Of a DNA stretch of 64,000 bases, positions 12,301 to 63,607 are shown piece after piece. Numbering within the stretch: the first letter of the stretch is position 1; the number at the start of each line of letters is the position of its first letter. Under the pieces are notes generated by a model that saw nothing but the letters and a program-made list of their open reading frames with translations, was not told the origin of the DNA and searched no databases. The position numbers and the translations under genes are program-made. The DNA comes from Deltaproteobacteria bacterium. GTDB taxonomy: Bacteria; Acidobacteriota; Thermoanaerobaculia; Multivoradales; JAHZIX01. The stretch spans positions 102,668-166,667 of the forward strand of contig JAHZIX010000041.1 in the NCBI GenBank assembly GCA_022601195.1, in the 5' to 3' direction.

Positions 12301-14001
12301 CAGATTCGGCAGCAGAAAGCTACGGTTCACGACCACGGCTTCCTGACCGTTGACCAGGACGGTGACGTCCTCGGCATTCGTCGTACCGGGCCCCACATCA
12401 TTGACCAGGCCGGAAACCGAAATCGTCTCTTCGTAAAGCTCTGCGCCGTTCTGCGGGTAATCGACCCGCACTCGGGGAGAAGTGTCGTCCCGGAACACTC
12501 GTACCGTTGCCACGGCCTGTCCACCGGCCGGGTCGGTGGCTACGGCCGACAGCCTTGTCGCCCCAGGGCCCACCGGTACGTTCGGGGCGGTAAAGGAAGT
12601 TCCCGTGATGGCCGCGACGATTCCGCTGACCGTCACGCTCGCAACTGGATCACTCACCGTCCCCGTGACATCGACGGACGAGACTTGAAGGAGGTCACCT
12701 TCTCGAGGCGTGTCAATCGTCACCGTAGGGGCGTCGACCCGTCGTAGCGGCAAGGCGACCTCGGCCTCATTCCCGGCTCGATCCGAGGCTTGCAAGATCA
12801 CTTCTTGAGGGCCACTTACCAGGTCGACCTGGGTATCGAAGAATCCATCGTTTACCGGCACAGGCACACCCGCCACCTCGAAGCTGGCCAACTCGCGATC
12901 GTCCTCGACGAGACCAACGATTCGAACCGTCGGCGTATTGACGACTTCATCTGCTCTTGGAGCGATAACTTCAATCACGGGAGGTTCGGTATCCAGAATA
13001 CCCACCACCGTGGTGTGTTCCGCCATACCGAGGCGATCCGTGGCGAGAGCCAGAATGAAATTGTCGCCTGGCTCCAGCTCTATCTCTGCTTGGAAAGCAC
13101 TCCCAGACACCACTGCCTCAACACCATTCACTAGGACGGAGGCGACCGCATCTGAATCCGTCACCATCCCCTGCACGAGCATCTGGGAATCACGGGTGAG
13201 GAATCCTGGCGGCGGATCCAGGATAGCCACTGACGGCGGCACCTGGTCGAGAACGAATTCGAATTCCCAACTGCCTTGACCAGCGTTATCACTGTCGTCC
13301 CAGATCAGCGCATGGATCTGATGAAGCCCGAGATCAAGCTCTGATCCGAGCCCGCAGATGGCCTCGACGCTCCCGACCGCGCAACGCACCGAAACATCTT
13401 CTCCATCAAGAAATGCACGAAAGCTCTCCGGTACGATCTTGCCACCAATGTCGGCGTATTCGAAGGTCAATTCTGCCGGCGCATAGTTAAAGACAACCGG
13501 TTCAGGGGCTGTCAACGTTATTACGGGAGGCGTGCTGTCCGGCGTATCCGTGGCCGCTGCTGCCCACCGAAAAAGATCGCCCGACTCGAAGCCATCAGCA
13601 AAGATGAGCTCTCCCGGTGGCGCGGGGGGGCTGATGACGTCAAAGAATCGGATCGCTTCAGCCGTACTGCCATCATCGCTCGAGATGGAGGCTCTGATCT
13701 CATGCTGTCCGTCGGTAAGGCCACTCAAAGCACAGGAGGCGAAAAGTGGAGTGACAGTGCATTGGGTTGTGACCTCGGCTACGTCGACGAAGACCTGGAG
13801 AGTCTCCGTAACGATGGCGGCATCGGGGTCGGAGTAAATTAGAAATAGGCCTGGATTCGGACCGGTCTGCTCACCCTTCGCTGGTTGCCGGATCTCGATG
13901 CTTGGGACGGCCTGAGCCATTTTGGGAAGGAATCCCCATATCCATACGCCCAAGAGCAAGAGAACTCGGCTAGATCTGCGAGCGTTCCAACTAGTGATCA
14001 T
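9385..14001 (-). CDS. giant secreted multidomain protein (Ig-like/Big, carboxypeptidase-regulatory-like, Cys-rich module, PKD domain) with C-terminal HExxH-containing domain
   Basis: 1538 aa with signal peptide MITSWNARRSSRVLLLLGVWIWGFLPKMAQA. A PKD-type motif is present (VRWKFGDGGEEIGETVSHDYLADGYFLVEAEL). A Cys-rich segment (CKPCFICNGIGCSPGCP...CPCDDNDSC) is present. The C-terminal region contains VTVLHESRHGY (HExxH). Confidence 0.8.
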   Translation of the reverse strand: MITSWNARRSSRVLLLLGVWIWGFLPKMAQAVPSIEIRQPAKGEQTGPNPGLFLIYSDPDAAIVTETLQVFVDVAEVTTQCTVTPLFASCALSGLTDGQHEIRASISSDDGSTAEAIRFFDVISPPAPPGELIFADGFESGDLFRWAAAATDTPDSTPPVITLTAPEPVVFNYAPAELTFEYADIGGKIVPESFRAFLDGEDVSVRCAVGSVEAICGLGSELDLGLHQIHALIWDDSDNAGQGSWEFEFVLDQVPPSVAILDPPPGFLTRDSQMLVQGMVTDSDAVASVLVNGVEAVVSGSAFQAEIELEPGDNFILALATDRLGMAEHTTVVGILDTEPPVIEVIAPRADEVVNTPTVRIVGLVEDDRELASFEVAGVPVPVNDGFFDTQVDLVSGPQEVILQASDRAGNEAEVALPLRRVDAPTVTIDTPREGDLLQVSSVDVTGTVSDPVASVTVSGIVAAITGTSFTAPNVPVGPGATRLSAVATDPAGGQAVATVRVFRDDTSPRVRVDYPQNGAELYEETISVSGLVNDVGPGTTNAEDVTVLVNGQEAVVVNRSFLLPNLSLAIGTNTLTVQAVDTNGNQTSTMIGVERLPQPTRRLIRVSGDLQQAEIGTDLALPFVVRLEDSDGNPVIGEQVVFSAVRTNGVLGSGERTRALVTGPDGQAATTFRLGTRVGVGNQRVEVSARGVPGHLTFLASALPGPPSNLIMDRGSQQTGAVNQALPEPLVAVVTDSGFNRLPGISVRLRAVQGGGAFGSGEAELIGITDANGRVAANLTLGPAEGVANNLVEVDLPDFPQVPVAGFVASGKAAGDPADTSISGLVVDNSDQPVPGVTVSLPGTALSVQTDTEGIFRLHPVPVGTYHLEVDGNTASRPGDWPHLEFELTTVPGQDNTLGMPIYLLPLDTARGLAVSASVGGVLTLPELPGFSLEVAPGSVTFPDGGQNGVVSATLVHGDKVPMVPSFGLQPRFILTIQPAGAVFDPPAKFTLPNVEELQPGESTELYSFDHDLGQFVSIGPGTVSVDGTVLESDPGVGIVKAGWHCGGNPAAVGTPHNCKPCFICNGIGCSPGCPTDLTEPFEFEGQGLNLGSCPCDDNDSCTSEDICRFTNPIFPECKGSAIGISDLRIEGNGEDVMLEIERDESGVATVSFSTEILPANHDCPNVEVRWKFGDGGEEIGETVSHDYLADGYFLVEAELRCLECSDVKIRRGMIVNVYQVQMRLTQDSPTEISDDGLYTEDTVLRVTAVRSGTGTPIHDFQGTVEIDEQSDDRIYHRNAGEFPSSVEISFSGTATFEVKSQIEFIDGEKPPEGVFVVLNYEMFRAEPLYVEQWVDNEQVDPRSRGAFPDWFEARMLDIFEEYGKSRPTSDVLATITGYRQEAFEGESNAIAGVDPDHSGQLEMQIDLFNSVFIRVPGEMLPSACAPSLNEALVVTVLHESRHGYQDLLSILNLESPDDLPESPNNDDDQDWLVDTVPAEVCPCDVLLDTMDVRETCNQAANETIDWMYQGDAVFDETFNFLALEMDAIKFATQQAP

Positions 14002-21163: not shown

Positions 21164-23437
21164 CTAGAGAATCTCGACGGAATCGACGCTCTGATAGCCC
21201 CGAGGAAGTTTCGTTCCCCGCTGGGCACGGGAACCCAGATAAGGTTCGAAATCGGCCCCCTTTAGGGTCACATACCTCTTGCCGGCATGAATTCTCAGTT
21301 GCTGCCCGGCCCCCACGACAGCCGCGGCTACTAAGCTCTCCTTACCGTCTCGTTTGGTGAACGGCATATTGAGAATCTTGACCCCTTTGCCGCGCGCCAT
21401 TCGCGGCAGCTCCTTGATAGGAAACGCCAGCATACGACCTTGATCGGAGATCCCCACGACCAGATCTTCCTCGAAGTTCTGAACCAGGCGGGGCAGGAGG
21501 GGAACGGACTCCTTGGGGAGCGTCAGCACGGCCTTGCCGGCCTTGAGGCGAGTTTGGAGATCTCCCAACCGGGCGACAAAGCCGTATCCGGCATTGGAAG
21601 CCAGCAGGAACAAAACCTCGTCCCCACCGGCGAGAACCGAGAGAAAGCGGGCTCCCGGAGGTGGGCTCACGCTACTGCTGAGAGGCTCTCCCTGGCTTCG
21701 AGCGGAGGGCAGGCTGTGGGCAGCCAAGGAGTAGGTTCTGCCAGCGGAATCCAGGAAGGTCACCCACTCATTGCTGCGCCCCGGAGCACTGTGTTGAAAG
21801 GCATCCCCTGCCTTGTAGCTCAACCCGGACGGATCAAAGTCATGCCCCTTGGCGGCCCGCACCCAACCCCGCTCGGAAAGTAGCACCGTCAAAGGTTCGG
21901 AGGGCATCAGCGCTGACTCATCCAAAGCCTTGGCCGGCGTCCGAGAAACGATCGGGCTTCTGCGGCCGTCATCAAATTCCGCTGCGTCCTCCTCGAGCTC
22001 CTGGCGCACCCTCTTGCGAAGCAACTTGGGCGATCCGAGAATTCTCTCCAGTTGGTCCCGCTCTTTCTCTAGCTCCTCCTGCTCACCCCGGATCTTCATC
22101 TCTTCCAAGCGAGATAGATGCCGCAGCTTTAGCTCCAGAATGGATTCCGCTTGGAGATCCGTCAGACTGAAGCGAGCCATCAGGACCGGCTTGGGTTTTT
22201 CCTCCCGACGGATGATGGCGATCACCTCATCGATATTCAGATGGGCAATCAGGAAACCCGCCAACAGGTGAAGGCGTTGGAGTACCTTGTCGTAGCGAAA
22301 CTTCAGACGTCTGCGAACCGTCTCGGTGCGGAACTCGATCCACTCTTTGAGCAGAGGCTTCAAGGAATACAGCTTCGGCCGACCGTCCAGGCCGATGACA
22401 TTCATGTTCACCCGCACGGATTTCTCCAGATCCGTGGTGGCGAATAGGTGAGCCATGAGGACATCCACGTCCACCCGATTGGAACGGGGACTGATCACCA
22501 GCCGGCAGGCGTTTTCGTGGTCGGACTCATCTCTCAAGTCGTCCACCATGGGCAGTTTCTTGGCCTGCATCTGAGCGGCGATCTGTACCAGGATCTTGCT
22601 GCCGGAGACCTGATACGGAAGAGCCGAGATGATGATGTCCCCGTCTTCCTTCACCCAGCGGGCGCGTAGCCGCACCGACCCGGAGCCGGTCTCATAGAGG
22701 GAAAGGAGCTCTTGGGGAGCGCTGATGATCTCTGCTTCCGTCGGGAAATCCGGGCCGAGAAGATGCTGGCACAGCTCCTCCGTGGTGGCTCGAGGATTCT
22801 CCAGGAGATGAATCAATGCAGCGACCACCTCGCCCACGTTGTGGGGAGGAATGTCCGTGGCCATACCGACGGCAATGCCTGAGCCGCCGTTCAACAATAC
22901 GTTGGGCAGCCGGGCGGGCAGGGTTTTGGGTTCGTTGAGGGTGCCATCGAAATTGGGCCCCCACTCCACCGTCCCCTGGCCTAGCTCCGACAGCAGCGTT
23001 TTGGCATAGGCAGTCAGCTTCGACTCGGTGTACCGCATCGCCGCGAAGCTCTTGGGATCGTCCTGGGTTCCCCAATTCCCTTGGCCGTCGACCAAGGGAT
23101 AACGAAAACTGAAGGCCTGAGCCATCAGGACCATGGCTTCGTAACAGGCCGAATCGCCATGAGGATGAAACTTGCCGATCACATCGCCGACGGTGCGAGC
23201 GGACTTCTTGTATTTCGCCGTCGCCGAAAGCCCTAGCTCGGACATGGCGTAGACAATGCGCCGCTGAACAGGCTTGAGACCATCCCCAAGATGAGGCAAG
23301 GCCCGGTCGAGGATGACGTACATGGAATAATCCAAGTAGGCCTTCTCGGTGAAGTCTGCCATGGGCATGCGCTCGTAGTTCGCTGCCTGCAGAGACATCT
23401 GCAAAGGACCGCCACCGCGCTGATTCTTCTTCGCCAT
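21164..23437 (-). CDS. parC: DNA topoisomerase IV subunit A
   Basis: N-terminus [42 protein letters not shown] is near-identical to the E. coli ParC signature (QRRI rather than GyrA HRRV). 757 aa. Confidence 0.9.
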
Positions 23438-38581: not shown

Positions 38582-39076
38582 ATGCATCAGCAACAGCCGT
38601 TGGGGAATATCGCCCTGGCGCAACAGGGCGTCGAACTCTGCCGCCGAGAGAAATGGGAGCGGGGCATGGGAGCCCTGATGACGGTCGCCGACCGCAAGCA
38701 AGACCACGACATTCTCCCGGGTCTGTATTACTCCTACCTCGGCTATTGCCTGGCTCGTTTCGAGAAGCGCTTGGACGAGGGTCTGGAACTCTGCCGCCAC
38801 GGGGTAAAGATTCAGCTCCACGAGGTGGAAAACCTCTACAACTTGGCGCGCACCTGCATGCTCGCCGGGGACCGACAAGGGGCCGTCAAAGCCCTCGAGG
38901 AAGGGTTGTTTCTCAACCCGGACTTCGGCCCGCTGATTCACCTCAGGAAAGAGATGGGCTTGCGCCGGGACCCGGTCCTTCGGATATTGTCTCGCTCCAA
39001 CCCCCTCAACCAAATCTTGGGCCGCATACGGAGCAGTTGGGCCAAGCAGCGCCTATCCCGCGAGATCAAAAAATGA
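38582..39076 (+). CDS. TPR-like hypothetical protein
   Basis: Start placed at ATG 38582 with GGAGG 8 nt upstream; the ORF-track TTG at 38474 is less likely. Helical repeat protein (YYSYLGYCLARFEKRLDEGLELCRHGVKIQL...NLARTCMLAGDRQGAVKALEEGL). Stop overlaps the next start (ATGA). Confidence 0.5.
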   Translation: MHQQQPLGNIALAQQGVELCRREKWERGMGALMTVADRKQDHDILPGLYYSYLGYCLARFEKRLDEGLELCRHGVKIQLHEVENLYNLARTCMLAGDRQGAVKALEEGLFLNPDFGPLIHLRKEMGLRRDPVLRILSRSNPLNQILGRIRSSWAKQRLSREIKK

Positions 39077-41271
39077 CCATCAAAGTTTCTTCCGATTCAC
39101 CTGGAACCCGGACGACCCGCTCATCTCTCCGCTCATTCCTCAGCGTCGGAACGACCTGGGGCCAAGGACTCCTGCTGATCCTCTTAGGGGGACTCGCCAT
39201 GCCAACTCTCGTTGCTACCGCCGACCCGAAAGATCCAGCTAGCGAGCCGGCCATAGAAGCAGCCCGCACAGCCCTGCTGGGTAAATTCGGAGACTCGGAG
39301 ACCGACCGCATCGACCGAGGTATCTCCCAGGTCACGAGCTATTGGCGCTCCGAGGATGGCTCCGCCGAAGCTCTCTCCCAATTTCTCCAAGAAGAATTCC
39401 TGCCGCGAGGCGAAGAGCTCGACCAAACCTTCGACCGCCTCGAGTTCATGTGGGAGCGAGCCGGTGGATACTTCACATCCCTCAACCGAGACTTGCGACG
39501 CGGCGCGGATCTGGAAATCGGACCGTTCCTGGCCATCGATCGACGGCTAGCGGGCTACGACCCAAGCGCTCACCTCAAAGCGGATCTTTTCGCCAACAAG
39601 ACCGCTTTCGTAGCTCTTCTCAACTTCCCCGCCACTCGACTTGAAGATCGGCTGCAGGGTGGTACCCAGTGGTCTCGGCGCCAATGGGCCGAAGCTCGCC
39701 TGACGGATCGATTCCTGCCTCGCGTGCCCGCTGAGGTCGAGCAAGAGGTGGCCCTGGCCTCGGCCACCGCAGACTCCTACATCAATGCCTACAACATCTA
39801 CATGCACCATCTCTTGACGGAAGATGGCCGTCGCCCGTTTCCCAAAGGCCTGAGGCTGATCAGTCATTGGGGACTGAGAGACGAGCTCAAAGCCCATTAT
39901 GCTGGCACCGACAGGGACACCGGACTAGAAAAGCAGCAAATGATCCAGAAGGTCATGGACCACATCGTCCGCCAGGAAATTCCCGCGGCGGTGGTCAACA
40001 ATCCCCTCCTCGACTGGAGCCCGACCAGCAATCGGGTCGAGGTCTCCACCGTCAAAGATGCTGAAGCCCCAGCAGGTTCCTCGGCCACACCATCCGCAGC
40101 GAGAGAAGACGATGAGCGCTATCGGCAGTGGCTGGAGGTCTTTCGTGCCCAGAGAAAAGCCGACCCCCACCATCCCCTCAACCCCTCTCACATCGAACGG
40201 CGCTTCAATGTCGACCGGGAGATTCCCGAGGACCGGGTTCGGGGCCTCTTCGAGGCGCTACTGACGTCGCCCCTCGCCGAGCCCGTCGGCCAACTCGTCT
40301 CCCAGCGCCTGGGCCGACCGCTGGAGCCCTTCGACATTTGGTACGTCGGCTTCAAACCGAGAGGTCAGCACGACGAATCATCCCTCGATGCCCTGACCCA
40401 AGACCGCTACCCCAAGGTCGAAGCCTTCTCAGCGGATCTTCCCCGAATATTGACCGACTTGGGTTTCTCGGTGGAGCGCGCCCAATTCCTCACCCGCCAC
40501 ATCGAAGTGGAACCGTCCCGGGGAGCTGGACATGCCTTTGGCGCCAGTCGGCGTGATGACAAAGCCCATTTGCGCACCCGCATCGGTGAAAACGGCATGG
40601 ACTACAAGGGCTACAACATCGCCGTTCATGAGCTGGGCCACAACGTCGAGCAGGTTTTCTCGGTCACCACCATCGACCACACCCTCTTGCAGGGAGTCCC
40701 CAACACAGCCTTCACCGAGGCCCTGGCCTTCGTCTTCCAGAACCGGGACCTCGAGCTCCTCGGCCTCCATAGCGCCGGCCCGGAAGCGGCTCACTTAAAA
40801 GCCCTCAACGACTTCTGGGCAACCCGGGAGATCGCCGGGGTGGGCCTGGTCGACATGAATGTCTGGAGCTGGCTCTACCAACACCCGGAGGCTTCCCCGG
40901 CACAGCTACGAGCCGCCGTGGTGACCATTGCCCAGGATGTTTGGAATCGCTACTTCGCCAAAACCTTCGGCAAGCGTGACCAAACTCTGTTGGCCATCTA
41001 CTCCCATATGATCGATGGCGCCATGTACACCCCGGACTATCCTTTGGGGCACCTCATCGCCTTTCAGATCGAAAGATACTTCGAGAACCCCCAGGTGGAT
41101 TTCGGCAAAGAATTCGAGCGCATTTGCCAGCTGGGGCAGCTGACTCCCGAAGCCTGGATGCGCCAAGCCGTAGGGGCCCCCCTCTCAGCCGAGCCACTAC
41201 TCGAGGCAGCAGCAGAAGCCTTGGAGGCCTTGGGGGAAGCAGACGAGTCTCCCAACCGGGATATCAGGTAG
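39073..41271 (+). CDS. secreted HExxH (gluzincin-like) putative metallopeptidase, family unassigned
   Basis: Start at ATG 39073 (MTIKVSS...; signal peptide LLLILLGGLAMPTLVATA). The ORF-track start at 38653 adds a low-complexity extension in a region used by the previous gene. Contains NIAVHELGHNVEQ with a downstream Glu (TEALAFVF). ~732 aa. Confidence 0.7.
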   Translation: MTIKVSSDSPGTRTTRSSLRSFLSVGTTWGQGLLLILLGGLAMPTLVATADPKDPASEPAIEAARTALLGKFGDSETDRIDRGISQVTSYWRSEDGSAEALSQFLQEEFLPRGEELDQTFDRLEFMWERAGGYFTSLNRDLRRGADLEIGPFLAIDRRLAGYDPSAHLKADLFANKTAFVALLNFPATRLEDRLQGGTQWSRRQWAEARLTDRFLPRVPAEVEQEVALASATADSYINAYNIYMHHLLTEDGRRPFPKGLRLISHWGLRDELKAHYAGTDRDTGLEKQQMIQKVMDHIVRQEIPAAVVNNPLLDWSPTSNRVEVSTVKDAEAPAGSSATPSAAREDDERYRQWLEVFRAQRKADPHHPLNPSHIERRFNVDREIPEDRVRGLFEALLTSPLAEPVGQLVSQRLGRPLEPFDIWYVGFKPRGQHDESSLDALTQDRYPKVEAFSADLPRILTDLGFSVERAQFLTRHIEVEPSRGAGHAFGASRRDDKAHLRTRIGENGMDYKGYNIAVHELGHNVEQVFSVTTIDHTLLQGVPNTAFTEALAFVFQNRDLELLGLHSAGPEAAHLKALNDFWATREIAGVGLVDMNVWSWLYQHPEASPAQLRAAVVTIAQDVWNRYFAKTFGKRDQTLLAIYSHMIDGAMYTPDYPLGHLIAFQIERYFENPQVDFGKEFERICQLGQLTPEAWMRQAVGAPLSAEPLLEAAAEALEALGEADESPNRDIR

Positions 41272-41674: not shown

Positions 41675-42207
41675 GAGTCCACTCCTCTCAGATCGAACAG
41701 AACCTCCTGTCCACAACTACCCGAGGTAGGACCTCCAGGTTTCAAGTGGCCTCCGAGTACCCGTGGTCCCCTCCTGCCGGTCTGCTGCTCCTTCCTGGCT
41801 GCCACCGCTCTCCGGCGACCTCTTAGGCGGTTCCCGTGATCTTCAGCTCCCGGTTCCGCTGCTGGAACCCGCCCTGGCTCCCAGCAACGACGTAGGCTAC
41901 GGCCCACAGAAGAGTGCCGAACACCAGGTAGAAGAGCGTGTCCTTGGCCCGCGAGAGAGCCACCGGGGGAAAGAGCATCGCCAGGAAGGGCCCGGCGAGC
42001 CTTACGGGAAAGAGAAAGCTTACCTCTGTGAGGCCTAGCTACTCTCCTCGAAGAAATTTAGTTTCCACGGCCAGCCAGGCTCAGGCTCCAGGAGAAGAGA
42101 AACGCCAGGCCGAAGTAGCCGCCAGGGGTGGCGTCCAAGAAACGCTCTGGCCTTCAAGACCGTCCTTCCTCTTGGAGCCTAAGTGTCCATCAAATGACCT
42201 ACGCCGC

Positions 42208-42414
42208 CTATCTGTCACCACCCCCGAACCACCCGAAGGCGAGACTGCTAAGGTAGAGCAGAACCCCAGCTCCGATCAACACTCCTCCACCGAGAATAAA
42301 GGCAACAAAAGCCAGGGGATGGTTCCCGAAGAGAGTCAGGGCCTCCACCAATAGGCCGGCGACAATGCAGACGGCAGCGGCGAGTAGAGGCTTGTGGGGA
42401 TGGGGCAACTTCAT
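42208..42414 (-). CDS. small 2-TM membrane protein, translationally coupled to the cymA-like gene
   Basis: Start ATG at 42414 overlaps the cymA-like stop (ATGA). Encodes MKLPHPHKPLLAAAVCIVAGLLVEALTLFGNHPLAFVAFILGGGVLIGAGVLLYLSSLAFGWFGGGDR. Confidence 0.45.
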   Translation of the reverse strand: MKLPHPHKPLLAAAVCIVAGLLVEALTLFGNHPLAFVAFILGGGVLIGAGVLLYLSSLAFGWFGGGDR

Positions 42415-43019
42415 GACGACCCTTCCAGAGACCACTTCTCGAGGCCGTCCAGCTCCTCTACCGCGTGCACGAACTCGTGACATTCCAGGCAGGAGGTCTC
42501 GTCGGTGGTGAGCTCCGCCCTAATGTCGGCATGGAACTCCGCTTCCTCGAAGGACCTGGCGCCGCCGTGGCAATGCAGGCACTCGCGGTTGCGATACGGC
42601 TCATAGAGCTCGATGGGCTCCCCTGGGGTACCGAAGTAGTTGACCCATAGGTGCTTGACTCCCGCCACCTTGGCCTGCAGGTCACCATACATGGTGTAGT
42701 GGGTATGACAGGTGAAACAGGCGTGTTCCCGCGACACCAGGCTGTTCTGAAAGTGCACCGCCGGCAGATACTCCCGTTCTTCCAGCTGGAGACTTTCCCC
42801 ATAGGGTTCCATGACATGGCAGGAAAGGCAGAACTCCGTGGTCTTGGATTTCTCCAGGTGGAGGTTGGCTCCGAAGGCCAGTGCCAACACCGGCAGCAAA
42901 AAGAGGGCCAAGAAGGTCAGGATCCGACCGCGAGTTCCTGCCACCAGGGAGGGACGCCAGACCAGCGCGGCCGCTAGCACAACCGAAAGGGTGATGAGGG
43001 ATAGCAGGACCGGTGTCAT
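42411..43019 (-). CDS. NapC/NirT (CymA-like) membrane-anchored tetrahaem cytochrome c quinol dehydrogenase
   Basis: N-terminal TM helix, then four CxxCH motifs (CLSCH, CFTCH, CLHCH, CLECH) with NapC/NirT-like spacing. 202 aa. Start overlaps the upstream cytochrome stop (ATGA). Confidence 0.85.
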   Translation of the reverse strand: MTPVLLSLITLSVVLAAALVWRPSLVAGTRGRILTFLALFLLPVLALAFGANLHLEKSKTTEFCLSCHVMEPYGESLQLEEREYLPAVHFQNSLVSREHACFTCHTHYTMYGDLQAKVAGVKHLWVNYFGTPGEPIELYEPYRNRECLHCHGGARSFEEAEFHADIRAELTTDETSCLECHEFVHAVEELDGLEKWSLEGSS

Positions 43020-43426
43020 GGCTCCGGCACCAGACCGACAAGCCAGTCTACGATTGCCTGGAGCTCTTCATCAGTGCCCTTGAACTCCTTCTTGTGCTCT
43101 TTGTCTTCTAGGGTCTCCTCTCGCCTCAGAAAGGCTGCCAACCAATTCCCTCCTCGCTCTGCTCCAACGGTGCTGAGATCGGGGCCTCGCAACTTCGCAG
43201 ACTTTGCCTTGGCCTCCACCTCCGCCACATCCACCGAGTGGCAGAGTTGGCACTTCAATGCCAGAAAAACCTCTTTGCCATCGCCAGTAGGATCCTCGAC
43301 TCCTTCGTCAACCACAACAGCGAGTACTTTGCTCGCACCGAGGTTCAGAAAAAGCGAGAAACAAAGGAATGCCGTGACAGCGAACCCTTTTGAGGATGCA
43401 GCAAAAAGTCTCTCGACCGCTCTCAT
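43016..43426 (-). CDS. monohaem class-I c-type cytochrome (MtoD-like), periplasmic
   Basis: Start ATG 43426 preceded by GGAGAAGGAGG. Signal peptide MRAVERLFAASSKGFAVTAFLCFSLFLNLGASKVLA. Single CQLCH haem motif. Confidence 0.75.
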   Translation of the reverse strand: MRAVERLFAASSKGFAVTAFLCFSLFLNLGASKVLAVVVDEGVEDPTGDGKEVFLALKCQLCHSVDVAEVEAKAKSAKLRGPDLSTVGAERGGNWLAAFLRREETLEDKEHKKEFKGTDEELQAIVDWLVGLVPEP

Positions 43427-43730
43427 CGCGAGCCTCCTTCTCCAGCTGATCGTAGACACCAATCTGTATTGCTGACAGTAGCCGCCGACTTCCATCTCAA
43501 CCACACCCCAGGGACTAGGCGATCCCCCTACTTATGGGTAGGCATGAGCCTGCCCCAGGAAAACCTCGGGCCACCCCAGGGACTGTTCTCTCCACGGCCA
43601 AGGAGCGATAGAAATGGGCCAAGACATCAGAAACCTCCGTTTCCGCATCAACGAATGCTGGACCGCTTCCCCGGGTACCCGAGGTTTGGCCCGCCAAGCC
43701 GAGCAAGCGATAGAGAGCAAGAGGTGACAC

Positions 43731-44696
43731 ATGGGATGGAATCTACGTCGATCTTTGGCCGCCTTGGGCATGAGTGTCCTCGTCGTGGCAGGACTGCCAT
43801 GGCTCGGCCCGGGTAGTCCTAGCTGGGCAGATGAGAAGCCGCAAGAGGTAATTCCGGGAGAGGAAGCTACCGCTGAGGCCGCTGGCTACGTGGGCTCAGA
43901 TTTCTGCGCCAGCTGTCATGAGGGCTACGAAGAAAAGCTTGCTGAGACTCCCCACGGAAGGTCCGGATTCGGCGCCCTTTCCAGCCGCGGCTGCGAAAGC
44001 TGCCACGGTCCCGGCAGCCTGCATGTCGAAGATCCGGAAATCGTCACCAACCAGCCTCGCCTCTACGCTCTCCCAGCGAAAGAACAGAACGCGGTTTGCC
44101 AAACCTGCCACGAGGGCTCCAATCGATTCTTCTGGCAAGGAGGGCGTCACGAAACTCGCGGCCTGTCCTGCCTCAGCTGCCACAGCGTTCACTCCTACGA
44201 GGTAGAGAAGGGGCAGCTCAACGCCGTGAATGAAACGGAACAATGCTTCACCTGTCACCAGGATGTTCGGGCAGAAACCTGGAAGACTTCCCACCACCCC
44301 ATCCGCGAGGGAAAGATGTCGTGCAGTGACTGCCACAACCCCCACGGCAGTCAATCGGACAAGATGATCACCGCCGCTTCCGTGAACGAACAATGCTATA
44401 GCTGTCATGCAGAGAAACGAGGGCCCTTCCTTTGGGACCATCCACCGGTCCGCGAGAACTGCGCCAGTTGTCACACTCCTCACGGCTCGAACCATCTCAA
44501 GCTGCAGAAAACCTCGGTGCCCTATCTATGTCAACAATGCCATTCCAACACCCGGCACCCGGGGACGCTCTATGACCGCTCAACCCTGGCGGACGGCACT
44601 CGACCGAGCAACCGTGACTTCAGCCGCGCCTGCCTAAACTGCCACGGAGCGATTCATGGCAGCAACCATCCCTCCAGCCCCTACTTGGCTCATTAG
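43731..44696 (+). CDS. periplasmic decahaem c-type cytochrome, MtrA/MtoA/PioA (DmsE) family
   Basis: 321 aa with signal peptide. Ten CxxCH motifs (CASCH, CESCH, CQTCH, CLSCH, CFTCH, CSDCH, CYSCH, CASCH, CQQCH, CLNCH). Size and haem count match MtrA/MtoA. Confidence 0.9.
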   Translation: MGWNLRRSLAALGMSVLVVAGLPWLGPGSPSWADEKPQEVIPGEEATAEAAGYVGSDFCASCHEGYEEKLAETPHGRSGFGALSSRGCESCHGPGSLHVEDPEIVTNQPRLYALPAKEQNAVCQTCHEGSNRFFWQGGRHETRGLSCLSCHSVHSYEVEKGQLNAVNETEQCFTCHQDVRAETWKTSHHPIREGKMSCSDCHNPHGSQSDKMITAASVNEQCYSCHAEKRGPFLWDHPPVRENCASCHTPHGSNHLKLQKTSVPYLCQQCHSNTRHPGTLYDRSTLADGTRPSNRDFSRACLNCHGAIHGSNHPSSPYLAH

Positions 44697-44708
44697 GAGG
44701 ACCAGACC

Positions 44709-46982
44709 ATGAAGAAATACAGGTTTTCGACGCTGCGAGCCCTGCCGGCAGCCCTGATTTTGCTAAGCCTGCCCTCCGGAGCGCCTTGGCTGGCCGAAGA
44801 AGAGACTTTCCGGCTGAGCCTGGACTCCATCTCTTTCGGATTCTTGGAGACCGATGTAACGACAGACTCGGCAAAGTTCCAGGAGTACCGAGATATAGGA
44901 AGCGGTTTTCAGCTGACCGACCTACGCCTGCGGGGGATCGGCGCCAACGGCGACCGAGTTCTGACCCTGACCGCCGACAACGTGGGCCGGGACGATGCTC
45001 GCTATGGTTTCTCCTATGGGATGTCCGGAAAGTACTCTCTGGAAATCGACTACAACAAGATCCCGCACCGCTTCGGCAATAATGCGACCCTGCTTTGGAA
45101 TCGCACGGGTCCTGGAACCTGGGCCATCTCAGACGCGGTTCAAAGCCAAATTCAGGGCGCCTTGGAGGATCGATTCGCCCTCGACCGAAGTGGTGTCAAC
45201 TTCCCTTTCCTCAGCGCTGTGCTGGCCCCCCATCTGAGCGCCGCCAACAAGAGCGACCTCGGACTCCAGCGGGACCGAACCCGCGTTACCCTCGAGCTGG
45301 GTAAGCTGGGGCACCTCGCTTGGACCGCCGAGGTGCGCCACGAGAACCGGGATGGACTGCGGCCATTCGGCGGCGACTTTGGTTTCAACAACGCTCAGGA
45401 GATCCCAGAGCCCATCGACTACGACACCACCGATGCGGAGGTCCGCGGCGAGTGGAACGGGGCGAAGGGAGGGGTGAACTTCGGCTACCGTTACTCCACC
45501 TTCGAGAACGACATCAGTACGCTGGTCTGGGACAATCCGTTTCGCGGCTCCGACTCCACGGATCCGAGGGCCTACTTGGGTCCCGGCTTCCTCTCCATCA
45601 ACGGCCCCACCCAGGGTCTCGTCGACCTGGCGCCGGACAACGAGGCCAACCTCGCCTTCGTCTCGGGCCGCACCAAACTGGGCGCTGGCTGGTGGCTCAA
45701 CGGCACCCTCAACTACAACGTCATGACCCAGAACGATCCCCTGCTGCCCTACACCCTGAACTCAGCCATCCAGGGCATCGACCACGAGACCGGCACCACC
45801 TTTGACGCCGCGGACCCCAACAACCTACCGGTGCGTAACGCCGACAACGAGGTTGAGGTCCTGAGCCTCGCCGGCAATGCCGGCACCCGTTTCGGTGACG
45901 ATTGGAAGCTCACTTTCCGCTACCGTTACTACGACTACGACAACACCTCGCCCCGCATCGAGTTCCCGGGCTACGTACGCATGCATTCAACCTGGCAAGA
46001 GGTCCCCCGCATCACGGTGCCCTATAGCTATACGAGGGACGACCTCGGCGCCGAGGTCGCCTGGGAGGCTACTTCCAAGACCACCCTGGCCCTGAGCTAC
46101 CGCCTATTGAGCTGGGATCGCGAGTTCCGGGAGACGGAGAGTACCGACGAGGACATCCTCGAGCTGACCCTCGACCAGCGCCTCAGCTCCAAGGCGACAT
46201 TGCGGGCCGGTTGGGAAACGGGAACCCGCTCCAACGATGGCTACGAGGTCGAGGCACAGGAGCTCACCTTCCTGGAGCCGGAAGGCATCAACAACCAGCC
46301 GGGGCTGCGAAAGTTCACCCAGGCCGCCCGCGACTTCGATGACTACGACCTTTCCCTGAATCTCTTCCCGACCCCCGAATGGAACGTCATCTTCGGGTAC
46401 TCCGGCCGGAACGAGGACTACCCGGACAGCCAATTCGGGCTGATCGCCGACGACATCCAGCAGCTTAACTTCGAGATCGGCTACACCCCTGGGGCCGGAT
46501 TCGGCTGCTACCTCTTTGGCCACCGGGCCGACCGCGACGTCCTGCAACGCGCCCGCCAGTCTGGAGGCACCCTCTCCACAGACCCGCGCAACGACTGGCA
46601 AGCGGACCTAGAAGAGACCATCGACACCTGGGGCTTTGGCATCAACGGCGAAAGGGATCATTGGTTTTGGGATGCCTCTGCCCGTTGGTCCAACTCCGAC
46701 GGCGAAGCGGATTTCTTCACACCGGCTGGGGGTAGCCCTTCGTCGGCGGTGGACTTCGACAACTATGAAGACATCGAGCTGCTCGCCTTTCACCTGAAGG
46801 TGCGCTACGACATCCGTGATGGCGCCTCCGTGGGCCTCTCCTACCTCTTCGAGGACTACACCATCGACTCCTTCATCCTTCAGGGCCTCCAACCCTACCT
46901 GCCCTCGGCTCTCCAGCTAGCAGCCAGCAACGGCAGCTACGAGGGCAACGTCATCGGACTCCATCTGAAATTCGCTTTCTGA
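44709..46982 (+). CDS. MtrB/PioB-family decahaem-associated outer-membrane beta-barrel protein
   Basis: Starts 12 nt after the decahaem gene. 757 aa with signal peptide MKKYRFSTLRALPAALILLSLPSGAPWLA. Abundant alternating aromatic/hydrophobic-polar strands (YSLEIDYNKIPHRFGN, TLALSYRLLSWDREF, GLSYLFEDYTID). C-terminal ...GLHLKFAF ending in Phe is the usual OMP barrel signature. No haem motifs. Confidence 0.75.
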   Translation: MKKYRFSTLRALPAALILLSLPSGAPWLAEEETFRLSLDSISFGFLETDVTTDSAKFQEYRDIGSGFQLTDLRLRGIGANGDRVLTLTADNVGRDDARYGFSYGMSGKYSLEIDYNKIPHRFGNNATLLWNRTGPGTWAISDAVQSQIQGALEDRFALDRSGVNFPFLSAVLAPHLSAANKSDLGLQRDRTRVTLELGKLGHLAWTAEVRHENRDGLRPFGGDFGFNNAQEIPEPIDYDTTDAEVRGEWNGAKGGVNFGYRYSTFENDISTLVWDNPFRGSDSTDPRAYLGPGFLSINGPTQGLVDLAPDNEANLAFVSGRTKLGAGWWLNGTLNYNVMTQNDPLLPYTLNSAIQGIDHETGTTFDAADPNNLPVRNADNEVEVLSLAGNAGTRFGDDWKLTFRYRYYDYDNTSPRIEFPGYVRMHSTWQEVPRITVPYSYTRDDLGAEVAWEATSKTTLALSYRLLSWDREFRETESTDEDILELTLDQRLSSKATLRAGWETGTRSNDGYEVEAQELTFLEPEGINNQPGLRKFTQAARDFDDYDLSLNLFPTPEWNVIFGYSGRNEDYPDSQFGLIADDIQQLNFEIGYTPGAGFGCYLFGHRADRDVLQRARQSGGTLSTDPRNDWQADLEETIDTWGFGINGERDHWFWDASARWSNSDGEADFFTPAGGSPSSAVDFDNYEDIELLAFHLKVRYDIRDGASVGLSYLFEDYTIDSFILQGLQPYLPSALQLAASNGSYEGNVIGLHLKFAF

Positions 46983-47044: not shown

Positions 47045-47082
47045 CCGGTAGAGCTACTCCCTCGGTTCTACCGGGCTTTTTC
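47045..47082 (+). terminator. Rho-independent terminator after the mtrB-like gene
   Basis: Stem ccggtaga/tctaccgg (8 bp) with a 14-nt loop, followed by GCTTTTT. Lies between convergent genes. Confidence 0.6.
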
Positions 47083-60288: not shown

Positions 60289-60966
60289 CTACCCCGGATT
60301 CACAGCCAAGCGGTAGCCCACCCCTTTGACGGTTTGGATCAACTTCTGATCCGTGAGCTTTCCAACCTTGCTCCGCAGACGATGAATGAAGACTTCCACA
60401 ACGTTGGTCATAGGGTCGAAGTTGACCTCCCACACTTTCTCCAGCAGTCGCGCCCGCGGTACGACGGCACCTTGATGACGCAACAAATACTCCAATACGT
60501 CAAACTCCCTAGCCGACAGACGCAAGGGGAAGTCAGCAACCTGGACTCTGCGCTTATCCGGGTTCATGGCCAAATCACCAGCCCGCAGCCAAGCGGTGGC
60601 TGGACGAGCGCTCCGGCGAACCAAACTTCTCACCCGTGCTTTGAGCTCCGTAAACTCGAAGGGCTTGGCAAGATAGTCATCTGCCCCAGCATCGAGCCCC
60701 CCTACCCGATCTTCCATAGACGACCGAGCTGTCAGCACGAGCACCGGTGTTAGGCTCCCTTCCTGACGCCAGCGCCTGAGTAATTCCAGTCCCGTGGGCG
60801 GTGGAATATTGCGATCCAGGATCACCCCGTCATACTCATTGACGATCATCAGCTCGGCGGCGGTGTCGCCATCCCGTGCCAGGTCGACCGCATAGAGTTC
60901 CTCGCGTAGCTCCTCAGCCACGGCATCTCCAAGGTTTCGATCGTCTTCTACGAGGAGAATTCTCAC
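60289..60966 (-). CDS. OmpR-family two-component response regulator (receiver + winged-helix)
   Basis: MRILLVEDDRNLGDAVAEEL...D...LDRNIPPPTGLELLRRWRQEG...PVLVLTAR receiver domain; C-terminal trans_reg_C (LTAREFDVLEYLLRHQGAVVPRARLLEKVW...YRL). Confidence 0.9.
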   Translation of the reverse strand: MRILLVEDDRNLGDAVAEELREELYAVDLARDGDTAAELMIVNEYDGVILDRNIPPPTGLELLRRWRQEGSLTPVLVLTARSSMEDRVGGLDAGADDYLAKPFEFTELKARVRSLVRRSARPATAWLRAGDLAMNPDKRRVQVADFPLRLSAREFDVLEYLLRHQGAVVPRARLLEKVWEVNFDPMTNVVEVFIHRLRSKVGKLTDQKLIQTVKGVGYRLAVNPG

Positions 60967-61051: not shown

Positions 61052-61729
61052 CTATGGCTCTTCACTGACCAAGCGGTACCCCACTCCCTTGACCGTCTCG
61101 ATCAACTTGTGGTCGGAATATCGCTGGATCTTCTGCCGCAACCGATGTATCAATACATCGACCACATTGGTAAGTGAGTCGAAAGTGGAATCCCAGGCAT
61201 GCTCGATCAACTCACCCCGAGAGATCACCTCCCCGCGGCGAGCCAACAGATACTCCAGCAGAGCGAATTCTTTCCCCGAAAGCTGAATGAGCTCACCGGA
61301 CACGCGTACCTCTCGCAGGGGTCGGTTCATCGACAGGACACCGGACCGGAGGGGAGAGTACATCGGTCTTTCCCCTCGTCGCAGTAGGCTACGGACTCGA
61401 GCCATCAGCTCAGAGAATTTGAATGGTTTTGCCAGATAGTCGTCGGCCCCCGCGTCCAAGCCGACAACACGCTCTTCCAAAGATCCTCGTGCAGTCACCA
61501 TGAGAACCGGCGTTTCTCGACCTTCGGCTCTCCAGGAGCGCAACAGCTCCAACCCGGTAGGGGAGGGAATCTGATCATCCAAGACAACGCCATCGTATTG
61601 GGTACACGACATCATCTTGGCAGCACTACTGCCGTCGACTACCAGATCCACCGTATAGCTCGTCTCTCTGAGCTCTTCTGCGATGGCGACCCCTAGAGTC
61701 CGATCGTCTTCGACTAGAAGAATTCTCAT
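61052..61729 (-). CDS. OmpR-family two-component response regulator (tandem paralogue)
   Basis: Same architecture and length (225 aa) as the gene at 60289..60966; roughly 60% identical by eye (MRILLVEDDRTLGVAIAEELRETSYTVDLVVDG...). Confidence 0.9.
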   Translation of the reverse strand: MRILLVEDDRTLGVAIAEELRETSYTVDLVVDGSSAAKMMSCTQYDGVVLDDQIPSPTGLELLRSWRAEGRETPVLMVTARGSLEERVVGLDAGADDYLAKPFKFSELMARVRSLLRRGERPMYSPLRSGVLSMNRPLREVRVSGELIQLSGKEFALLEYLLARRGEVISRGELIEHAWDSTFDSLTNVVDVLIHRLRQKIQRYSDHKLIETVKGVGYRLVSEEP

Positions 61730-62134
61730 ACCCCGTCCTCCTCTACCTTTCCCGTGACCTGCGAGCCCCTCCCAGTCGCCCCGAAACAGATACCCACCTT
61801 GCTTAGCTACTCGAGGCGACCGAATCCTTCGCCTCGAGCAGAATTACCTGAATCCGACCCCCACCTCGACCTCGACTCGACCTAGAACGTCCCCGGGTAA
61901 CAACACGAATCACACTGGGAAACCTGGAACTACCAGAGGTCTAGCACCTATTCCTGAAAGCAAATTTTTCTTAAATAGAACACCCTAGCGACGCTCCGAA
62001 TTCTGCTTCACGGCTGTAGATCTCCTCGCCAGGAAACCATCTCCGATTGGATTGCCGGTCCCCACCCCAAAAGTGAGCCGTTAATGCTCTGTTCATCTGC
62101 TCTTCGCTATGTTGCACCTGGATTTGGAGATCCT

Positions 62135-63607
62135 ATGAAGAGCACTTTGAACAGACCTATCACCACACTCAGCCTGCTCGTGAGCGCCTGTCTTTTCTCG
62201 ACGGCTGTTATCTCTGAAGAGACCAACAAAAACCCCCATGGGAACCTCCGTTCGGAATGCAGTGACTGCCATAGCACTTCCGGGTGGTCTCCATTGATAG
62301 AGCCTCTCCTCTTTCAGCACTCCTCGACGAATTTCCCTCTCTATGGCGCCCATGCGACGACTGGATGTAACGAGTGCCACGGAGACCTTGACTTCTCAAA
62401 GACCGATTCCAATTGCTTTAGTTGCCATGAAGCCGAGTTCCAAAACGCCACCGACCCAGACCACAGCGACTTCCAAGGCATCTCCATCACCTGCGAAGAC
62501 TGTCATTCCGAAATCGCTTGGGAACCGGCAAACTTCGATCACGATTCCACGAGCTTCCAATTACGAGGATCCCACCGAACTACGACCTGCGCCGCCTGTC
62601 ACGAGGATGGCTACGTTGGAACACCCTCCGATTGTTTCTCTTGTCACCTAGCAGACTTTGACGGAGCCACCGATCCGGACCACCAAGCATTTCCCATCAC
62701 CTGTGAAGACTGCCATGCTGAAAACACTTGGAATTCTGCAGTTTTCGATCACAACGCCACCGCCTTTCCCCTGCGGGGTGCTCACCAAGCCGCTGACTGT
62801 GCTTCTTGTCACCGCGACGGGTTCGCAGGCACTCCCACTGATTGTTTTTCCTGCCACCAGGCGGACTTCGACGGAGCCACCGATCCGGACCACCTGGGCT
62901 TCCCCACTACCTGCGAAGATTGTCATTCCGAAAGTGCCTGGGAGCCCGCCAACTTCGATCACAACCTGACAGCGTTTCCTTTGAATGGAGCCCATCGCAG
63001 TCTCGACTGCCTGGCCTGCCACGGAGATGGCTACCAGGGAACTCCCACCAACTGTTTCTCCTGTCACCAGGCGGACTACGAGGGAGCCACCGATCCGGAT
63101 CACCGAGGCTTCCCCACTACCTGCGAAGACTGTCATTCCGAAAGTGCCTGGGAACCCGCTAGCTTCGATCACAACCTGACGGCGTTTCCTTTGGATGGTG
63201 CCCACCGCAGCCTCGATTGCCTGGCTTGCCACGAAGATGGCTACCAAGGCACCCCCACTGACTGCTTCTCTTGTCACCAGAACGATTACCAGCGAACCGA
63301 CGATCCTGATCACATCGCCGCCGGATTCCCCACCACCTGTGAGGACTGCCATAACACCAGCGATTGGGACGACACCGACTGGGATCACGACGACTTCTTC
63401 CCCATCTATTCGGGGAATCACCGTCGAGGCAGAGCCTGGACAACCTGTGAACAATGCCACGTCAGCCCAGGAAACTATCGTCATTTCGAGTGCATCGAAT
63501 GTCATGAGCACAACCGTTCCCGCATGGACAATGAACATCGCGGCATCGGTGGCTACCGATATGAAAGCCAGGCTTGCTTCAGCTGTCACCCAGATGGGGA
63601 TGACTAG
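62135..63607 (+). CDS. multihaem c-type cytochrome (about 19 CxxCH) built of repeated trihaem modules
   Basis: Start ATG 62135 with GGAG RBS; signal peptide MKSTLNRPITTLSLLVSACLFSTAVISEE. 19 CxxCH motifs. A module (FDHNxTAFPLxGAHxxxDCxxCHxDGYxGTPTxCFSCHQADFxGATDPDHxxFPTTCEDCHSExAWEPA) recurs about 5 times, with near-identical nucleotide copies at 62900-62950 and 63110-63160. Confidence 0.9.
   Translation: MKSTLNRPITTLSLLVSACLFSTAVISEETNKNPHGNLRSECSDCHSTSGWSPLIEPLLFQHSSTNFPLYGAHATTGCNECHGDLDFSKTDSNCFSCHEAEFQNATDPDHSDFQGISITCEDCHSEIAWEPANFDHDSTSFQLRGSHRTTTCAACHEDGYVGTPSDCFSCHLADFDGATDPDHQAFPITCEDCHAENTWNSAVFDHNATAFPLRGAHQAADCASCHRDGFAGTPTDCFSCHQADFDGATDPDHLGFPTTCEDCHSESAWEPANFDHNLTAFPLNGAHRSLDCLACHGDGYQGTPTNCFSCHQADYEGATDPDHRGFPTTCEDCHSESAWEPASFDHNLTAFPLDGAHRSLDCLACHEDGYQGTPTDCFSCHQNDYQRTDDPDHIAAGFPTTCEDCHNTSDWDDTDWDHDDFFPIYSGNHRRGRAWTTCEQCHVSPGNYRHFECIECHEHNRSRMDNEHRGIGGYRYESQACFSCHPDGDD

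Follow-up and report, generated by a model that had tools for sequence, protein, structure and literature searches.

A cluster of five genes (positions 42208–46982) was analysed in a 64,000-nucleotide stretch of contig JAHZIX010000041.1 (GenBank assembly GCA_022601195.1), which is referred to below as the window. The cluster almost certainly encodes an Mtr/Mto-type conduit for extracellular electron transfer, built around a decahaem cytochrome and an outer-membrane barrel. The whole statement, that this conduit is run outward as a respiratory outlet, was given a confidence somewhat above even. The gene products belong to the families of established conduits, the barrel has the corresponding fold, the genes are linked, and the set is conserved across related genomes. 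An initial annotation, made from the sequence alone, had proposed a porin-cytochrome electron-transfer module at this site, and family scores, barrel fold and linkage supported that proposal.

Organization of the gene cluster

The decahaem c-type cytochrome gene (43731–44696, plus strand; 321 aa, MCH9650180.1) is followed by the barrel gene (44709–46982, plus strand; 757 aa, MCH9650181.1) after a gap of 12 nt that holds a GGAGGA Shine-Dalgarno sequence. Divergently, on the minus strand, a mono-haem cytochrome (43016–43426; 136 aa, MCH9650179.1), a NapC/NirT-family tetrahaem protein (42411–43019; 202 aa, MCH9650178.1) and a two-helix membrane protein with no assigned family (42208–42414; 68 aa, MCH9650177.1) are encoded in that order and coupled by two ATGA stop/start overlaps. 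None of the five reading frames is interrupted; Shine-Dalgarno sites are present, and stop and start codons are coupled. The NCBI pipeline calls exactly the same five products (MCH9650177–181) and names four of the five by family; the 68-aa product is entered in GenBank as 'hypothetical protein'.

The coordinates of the decahaem and barrel genes, the ten CxxCH motifs, the haem-free barrel, the 12-nt gap and the ...KFAF ending described in the initial annotation were all present, as were the divergent mono-haem cytochrome (CQLCH), tetrahaem protein and two-helix peptide with their ATGA overlaps. The mono-haem start had been placed at GTG 43504; it was reassigned to an ATG 7 nt past GAAGGAGG, at 43426, from which the 136-aa product is read. 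The boundaries of the gene for the two-helix protein were likewise corrected, to 42208–42414.

Decahaem cytochrome and outer-membrane barrel

The decahaem protein, a predicted periplasmic member of the MtrA/MtoA/PioA/DmsE family, carries ten CxxCH motifs (residues 59, 88, 123, 147, 172, 198, 222, 244, 267 and 301), 24 histidines in total and an N-terminal hydrophobic signal segment (residues 8–27). It matched TIGR03508 (DmsE family) at 259.5 bits (cut-off 192.2) over model positions 1–258 of 258. By phmmer, residues 53–319 were aligned with MtrA of the Shewanella baltica Mtr complex (structure 6R2Q; chain A is MtrA and chain B is MtrB) at an E-value of 7.7e-67, with all ten haem sites in register. 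Identity was 42% to this MtrA, 38–44% to homologues from other phyla and 58–75% within its own clade, and 16 of the histidines were conserved at a level of at least 95% among 53 homologues.

The initial annotation had considered, as an outcome that would count against it, that the decahaem protein might group with multihaem reductases of the nitrite/hydroxylamine type. This was not the case: the TIGR03508 cut-off was passed, the NrfB, NrfH and NapC models all scored far under their cut-offs, and no CxxCK motif was found in the 321-aa protein. The GSU2203-type decahaem model NF041028 gave 251.2 bits, under its cut-off of 325.

The barrel protein has no haem motif, a single cysteine and the C-terminal sequence ...LHLKFAF. 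It matched PF11854 (MtrB_PioB) at 328.5 bits (cut-off 23; E 1.2e-97), with residues 52–757 aligned to model positions 4–635 of 635. A single-sequence search against solved structures returned no match; a profile of the clade (118 members) retrieved MtrB (6R2Q_B) at an E-value of 9.7e-35 over nearly the full length. An AlphaFold2 model built with the clade alignment as input had a mean pLDDT of 90.3, a pTM of 0.84 and 26 long strands by secondary-structure count, in agreement with the 26–28 or so strands expected in the initial annotation. When the model was searched with Foldseek, 6R2Q_B ranked first (E 3.4e-39; TM 0.78/0.90), with 18% identity to MtrB over the structural alignment, and the next matches were TonB-dependent transporters with TM values of at most 0.44. 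The contrary outcome named beforehand, no MtrB/PioB match together with a non-barrel fold, was therefore not what was found, given the PF11854 match and the 26-strand model. A reading frame of 757 aa at 21164–23437 was tried as a second barrel and rejected, as its product is a topoisomerase IV/gyrase A-type subunit.

Periplasmic and inner-membrane partners

The mono-haem protein has a signal peptide and matched PF00034 at 31.9 bits. Its only histidines are H63, within CQLCH, and H111, and the mature protein is without methionine. H111 was invariant among 106 homologues; distant relatives that adjoin MtrAB-like pairs in other phyla carry the usual Met-Pro at this position. When the family profile was compared with solved structures, MtoD of Sideroxydans (4XXL) was the sole full-length match, with a marginal E-value of 0.0055; a search with the single sequence gave chance-level matches only. 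H111 aligns on His95 of MtoD, the crystallographic distal ligand of that protein (PMC4412085), and the spacing from proximal to distal histidine is 48 residues in both. Because the invariant second histidine aligns with the MtoD distal ligand, the mono-haem is probably a bis-His cytochrome. Its predicted fold is that of class I and not specifically that of MtoD, which ranks 9 and 12 by fold; the protein is therefore termed MtoD-like and not a proven orthologue.

The tetrahaem protein carries four CxxCH motifs and matched PF03264 at 46 bits (cut-off 24.1), and the NrfH, TorC and NapC equivalog models scored far under their cut-offs. Against NrfH (2J7A_C) an E-value of 8e-5 was obtained. Two hydrophobic segments lie at its N-terminus (residues 1–27 and 29–56), and two such segments parted by an Arg-rich loop were seen in the NapC/NirT proteins of this clade; the usual anchor of the family is a single N-terminal segment. 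Identity was 49–62% to the orthologues of 11 related loci and about 23% to alphaproteobacterial NapC-type neighbours of MtrAB-like pairs. The initial annotation had called the protein CymA-like. At the level of the NapC/NirT family this was borne out, and at about 23% identity any closer likeness was overstated. No CymA homologues outside Proteobacteria were found in a 2018 survey (PMC6295460).

The 68-aa protein had no match in Pfam or NCBIfam. Its hydrophobic stretch (three overlapping windows, residues 7–64) fits two helices, and it carries the conserved motif EALTLFW.HP. With an HMM built from the clade, it was found directly downstream of napC in every one of the 11 related loci with that gene, and no further occurrence turned up. 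This constant position directly after napC places the protein, as judged by gene order, within the conduit system, where its most plausible role is that of a partner to the NapC-type protein in the membrane.

Host lineage and occurrence in related genomes

GenBank labels the organism 'Deltaproteobacteria bacterium'. Among named proteins, the nearest homologues of LepA (80–85% identity) all come from Thermoanaerobaculia or Acidobacteriota, as do the nearest homologues of the barrel, of which the best (64% identity) is from Candidatus Multivoradales. By these protein comparisons the host is an uncultured acidobacterium of the Thermoanaerobaculia, and the Deltaproteobacteria label looks outdated or wrong because both LepA and the module have Thermoanaerobaculia as relatives. 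Since the nearest homologues of both LepA and the barrel are of this lineage, the module stands in its native lineage. A foreign island was considered and rejected: GC content is like that of the surroundings (window 0.584, module 0.602, range 0.545–0.624), and LepA indicates the same class, Thermoanaerobaculia, as the module does. The initial annotation had described the DNA as very high in GC and its lineage as unusual for such a module. Neither description fits a window of 58% GC, a Thermoanaerobaculia host and a module present in 20 related loci.

Species-representative genomes were scanned for the module, and 58 decahaem-barrel loci were found. The decahaem gene is directly beside the barrel gene in 58 of 58, and upstream of it in all except one (L022, where it is downstream). 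The closest 20 loci come from 19 genome records, all of them Thermoanaerobaculia or unclassified Acidobacteriota; these share the divergent layout, and the layout of the module is conserved at 47–81% identity. Upstream flank was sufficient in 18 of the related loci. Sixteen of these have the mono-haem gene, two of them (L007 and L016) as a tandem duplicate, and the napC and small genes were present together in 11. The mono-haem is thus the most constant partner, irrespective of the type of inner-membrane module. Two full copies of the module were seen about 4 Mb apart on one closed acidobacterial chromosome (OY969474.1). Two decahaem-barrel pairs within 18 kb were seen in each of two further loci, one from Vicinamibacterales (L022) and one from Elusimicrobia (L035).

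In four sister loci the NapC-type and small genes are replaced, beside the MtrAB-type pair, by genes for ImcH-like and CbcL-like proteins (L007 2233–5631, L016 2393–5810, L011 1640–3160 and L005 2996–6426, all minus strand). The ImcH-like proteins (475–506 aa) have three membrane segments, a CX3CH motif immediately past the third of these, then five CX2CH motifs, the ImcH signature as defined in PMC6295460. The CbcL-like proteins are fusions of an 11-haem c-type domain with cytochrome b561, the architecture of the CbcL/MtoC/MtrH family. On comparison of the loci, decahaem, barrel and mono-haem thus form a constant core, around which the inner-membrane module is exchangeable. In the 2018 survey no mtrAB or mtoAB was found beside imcH (PMC6295460).

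Directly downstream of the barrel gene, the L007 locus also carries a gene (10597–13725, plus strand) for a protein of 1042 aa with 11 haem motifs. This protein matched the Pfam model for MtrC/MtrF domains II/IV at 32.1 bits, just above the cut-off of 30, and may be a surface cytochrome partner. No equivalent was found in the window.

Proposed mechanism and direction of electron flow

In the proposed mechanism, the NapC/NirT tetrahaem protein, anchored in the inner membrane and probably associated with the 68-aa protein, would exchange electrons with the quinol/quinone pool. The soluble and probably bis-His mono-haem would shuttle electrons across the periplasm, and the MtrA-type decahaem, threaded through the 26-strand MtrB-type barrel, would let them cross the outer membrane, its last haem being exposed at the cell surface. 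Acceptors of outward flow could be extracellular or soluble/chelated Fe(III)/Mn(IV), humic substances or other cells. Because no MtrC-type surface cytochrome is encoded beside the module, either the decahaem itself or a partner encoded at another site would have to make the surface contact. That the decahaem sits inside the barrel, and that the partners act in this order, we infer by analogy with the solved Mtr complex and with the pathway proposed for Mto.

The conduit wire is intrinsically reversible. Outward flow, that is, reduction, was favoured over uptake, at slightly above even. To our knowledge, the only cultured member of the Thermoanaerobaculia is Thermoanaerobaculum aquaticum, an Fe/Mn reducer, which speaks for outward flow. 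So do the cultured iron-cycling Acidobacteriota tabulated in PMC12911419, all of which are reducers, and the proposal that Thermoanaerobaculia cytochrome-barrel clusters serve metal reduction (bioRxiv 10.1101/2020.10.01.322446). The ImcH family has so far been implicated only in quinol oxidation (PMC6295460); the ImcH-like partners in the four sister loci therefore weakly favour outward flow, as does the 11-haem MtrC/MtrF-domain protein of L007. The CbcL-like swap was considered as a further sign of outward flow and dropped, as the CbcL/MtoC/MtrH family occurs in oxidisers and reducers (PMC6295460).

Several observations weigh against this interpretation, mostly as regards direction. The same set of decahaem, barrel, mono-haem (here probably bis-His) and NapC-type protein, with no MtrC, occurs in the Fe(II) oxidiser Sideroxydans. 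An N-terminal CXXC has been reported for the MtrB proteins of metal-reducing Gammaproteobacteria, and no CXXC was found anywhere in the barrel analysed here. The initial annotation held that direction could not be read from sequence, in agreement with published phylogenies: MtoA and PioA form no function-specific clade, and the authors state that direction is not inferable (PMC8805035), which makes phylogenetic and contextual arguments on direction weak. CbcL/MtoC-type and NapC-type modules are both found in oxidisers and in reducers (PMC6295460), and the sister loci bear on this organism only indirectly. As regards the barrel family, TIGR03509 gave 237.0 bits, 3 bits short of its cut-off of 240.05, which would explain the more generic barrel name given by NCBI.

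Electron uptake coupled to Fe(II) oxidation, as in the Mto system of Sideroxydans/Gallionella or the Pio system of Rhodopseudomonas, was considered possible and distinctly less probable than outward flow. The surface decahaem would then oxidise soluble or mineral Fe(II), the mono-haem would carry electrons inward, and the NapC/NirT protein would reduce quinone; electrons from the mono-haem may, in addition, reach a terminal oxidase or reductase. The gene content is consistent with such a pathway, since the module has counterparts of mtoA, mtoB, mtoD and cymA and lacks an MtrC-type gene, and modules of MtrA and MtrB only typify known oxidisers (PMC8805035). The barrel without an N-terminal CXXC also fits uptake. 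MtoD is the best full-length solved relative of the mono-haem family, with the distal histidine aligned and the 48-residue spacing shared, but with an E-value of 0.0055 the sequence match is marginal, and the fold is no nearer MtoD than other class-I cytochromes. Uptake is further opposed by the absence of any Fe(II)-oxidising acidobacterium from the compendium in PMC12911419 and by the pairing of the same core in sister loci with proteins like ImcH, whose family is known from reducers alone (PMC6295460). As a weak negative, no oxidase, bc1 or carbon-fixation genes were found in the 64-kb window.

The fuller proposal, that uncultured Thermoanaerobaculia carry a complete Mto-type uptake pathway and oxidise Fe(II) or take electrons from minerals, was regarded as unlikely. 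In such a pathway the decahaem and barrel would work with a bis-His shuttle like MtoD and with a NapC-type enzyme that reduces quinone and has an undescribed 68-aa membrane subunit. If true, these would be the first Acidobacteriota known to oxidise Fe(II), and shuttles of the MtoD type would no longer be confined to Betaproteobacteria.

The outward-run metal-reducing conduit was also compared with a conduit of the DmsE/DmsF type, in which a dedicated extracellular reductase of a soluble substrate (DMSO, iodate) would be fed in place of metals. The best NCBIfam family of the decahaem is named after DmsE, and the decahaem-barrel core is common to dmsEFAB (PMC8805035). However, no molybdoenzyme or other reductase gene adjoins the decahaem-barrel pair, and the tested neighbours are not kept beside the module in relatives, save a ZIP-type gene in 3 of 58 loci; this explanation was considered very improbable. 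A silent or decaying remnant that merely resembles an electron-transfer module is effectively refuted by conservation, as judged from five intact frames with Shine-Dalgarno sites and coupled stops and starts, the conserved ten haem motifs and 16 histidines, a barrel model at pLDDT 90, and a layout kept at 47–81% identity in 20 related loci.

Regulatory signals and neighbouring genes

The divergent intergenic region (43427–43730, 304 bp), which would hold the promoters of both operons, contains a 13-nt exact direct repeat, CACCCCAGGGACT, at 43504–43516 and 43572–43584, 68 nt apart. By a rough estimate, a repeat of this kind is expected by chance in fewer than 1 per 1000 regions of 300 bp, and it may be a regulator-binding site or operator. 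No match to the sigma-70 consensus was found in the module region. Terminator-like hairpins flank both operons, one (47045–47074, plus strand) 63 nt past the barrel stop codon, with a stem of 11 bp and a T run after it, and one (41978–41998, minus strand) downstream of the minus-strand operon, a weaker match with an 8-bp stem. No tRNA or Rfam features were found in the 64-kb window.

Neighbours of the module include a convergent S8 protease gene downstream, a Dus enzyme, and two products without a Pfam match, one of them a small membrane protein. PioA is known to undergo proteolytic processing; the S8 protease was considered as a processor of the decahaem by analogy and rejected, as its gene adjoins the module in no relative. 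Upstream of the module, a long frame (38653–41271, plus strand) has a likely signal or anchor segment and a HELGH motif, of the HExxH form typical of zinc proteases. It had no Pfam match and is not conserved beside the module in relatives; its product is possibly a secreted metalloprotease not yet described. The TPR Ser/Thr kinase and TSP3-repeat proteins reported for the window in the initial annotation are real.

The only other multi-haem frame of the window lies 15 kb from the module (62084–63607, plus strand; 507 aa) and carries 19 CxxCH motifs, with a match to Pfam Cytochrome_C7 at 82 bits and none to the OmcA/MtrC family. Five units of 70 residues were recognised in its product, each with three haems at a motif spacing of 32/15/23. 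A lipobox-like VSAC past an internal start codon makes it a lipoprotein candidate, and it could serve the conduit as a partner in the periplasm or at the surface; no close homologue was found beside the Mtr-type modules of relatives. Two paralogous genes of 225 aa (60289–60966 and 61052–61729, both minus strand) lie just upstream of it on the opposite strand and, judged by sequence, look like response regulators, and a gene for a secreted protein starts after it and runs off the end of the window.

Significance

The module type is already known, is common in the lineage and is annotated in GenBank. MtrB-type porin-cytochrome complexes in Acidobacteria were reported in 2020 (PMC7399161), MtrCAB occurs in Acidobacteriia (PMC8805035), and PioA/MtoA homologues have been described as widespread in Acidobacteria (PMC10654088). 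Homologues of mtoD and mtoC beside mtrCAB have been found almost exclusively in Betaproteobacteria (PMC8805035). A literature search returned no paper linking Thermoanaerobaculia with MtrB, PioB or MtoA in the sense of a conduit. The novelties at clade level are modest and comprise the MtoD-like shuttle in Acidobacteriota, the NapC-type protein with its two-helix partner, and the ImcH-like swap.

The cluster adds a complete conduit, predicted to run from quinone pool to cell surface, to the Mtr/Mto-type systems outside Proteobacteria, in a class that is well represented in soil and sediment metagenomes as judged by the record names of the related genomes. For specialists, a periplasmic shuttle with an invariant second histidine accompanies the decahaem-barrel pair under either inner-membrane module. 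The current picture of extracellular electron transfer is unchanged; the genes offer candidates for expression studies and for the interpretation of iron cycling by Acidobacteriota.

Comparison with known systems

In gene content, the comparison with mtoD-cymA and mtoA-mtoB drawn in the initial annotation holds. Four protein types are shared with MtoA-MtoB-MtoD-CymA(ImoA) of the Fe(II) oxidiser Sideroxydans lithotrophicus ES-1, neither system includes MtrC, and in the class-I mono-haem of both a second histidine replaces methionine. The present system differs from Mto in its host phylum, Acidobacteriota, in the arrangement of its genes in two divergent operons, and in its NapC-type protein, whose N-terminus has a pair of hydrophobic segments and which is accompanied by the conserved two-helix protein of 68 aa. 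We know of no description of such a partner for Mto.

In the Shewanella MtrCAB complex (6R2Q), the MtrA chain is 42% identical to the decahaem with ten haem sites aligned, and both barrels have 26 strands. In contrast to MtrCAB, no MtrC/OmcA-type surface decahaem lipoprotein is encoded nearby, the barrel is 18% identical and without an N-terminal CXXC, and the inner-membrane and periplasmic partners adjoin the pair, whereas in Shewanella they are encoded elsewhere in the genome. The DmsEFAB system differs in that DmsAB-type molybdoenzyme genes do not adjoin the pair here.

PioAB(C) of Rhodopseudomonas palustris TIE-1 likewise combines a decahaem with an MtrB/PioB-family barrel and has no MtrC. 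The 321-aa decahaem described here is without the long N-terminal extension of PioA, and a mono-haem and a NapC-type protein stand in place of the HiPIP (PioC); no HiPIP-like product was found among the genes called between 41.7 and 47.1 kb. Identity to alphaproteobacterial homologues was 40–43% for the decahaem and 21–24% for the barrel. Geobacter ImcH and CbcL (of the MtoC/MtrH family) have counterparts in the four sister loci only and none in the window. Related by lineage, and proposed to serve metal reduction, are the clusters of marine Thermoanaerobaculia and of Thermoanaerobaculum aquaticum, which combine a multi-haem cytochrome with a beta-barrel and come from the same class (bioRxiv 10.1101/2020.10.01.322446), and the MtrB-type porin-cytochrome complex of Holophaga, which belongs to the same phylum and follows the same idea of a periplasmic cytochrome joined to a barrel (PMC7399161).

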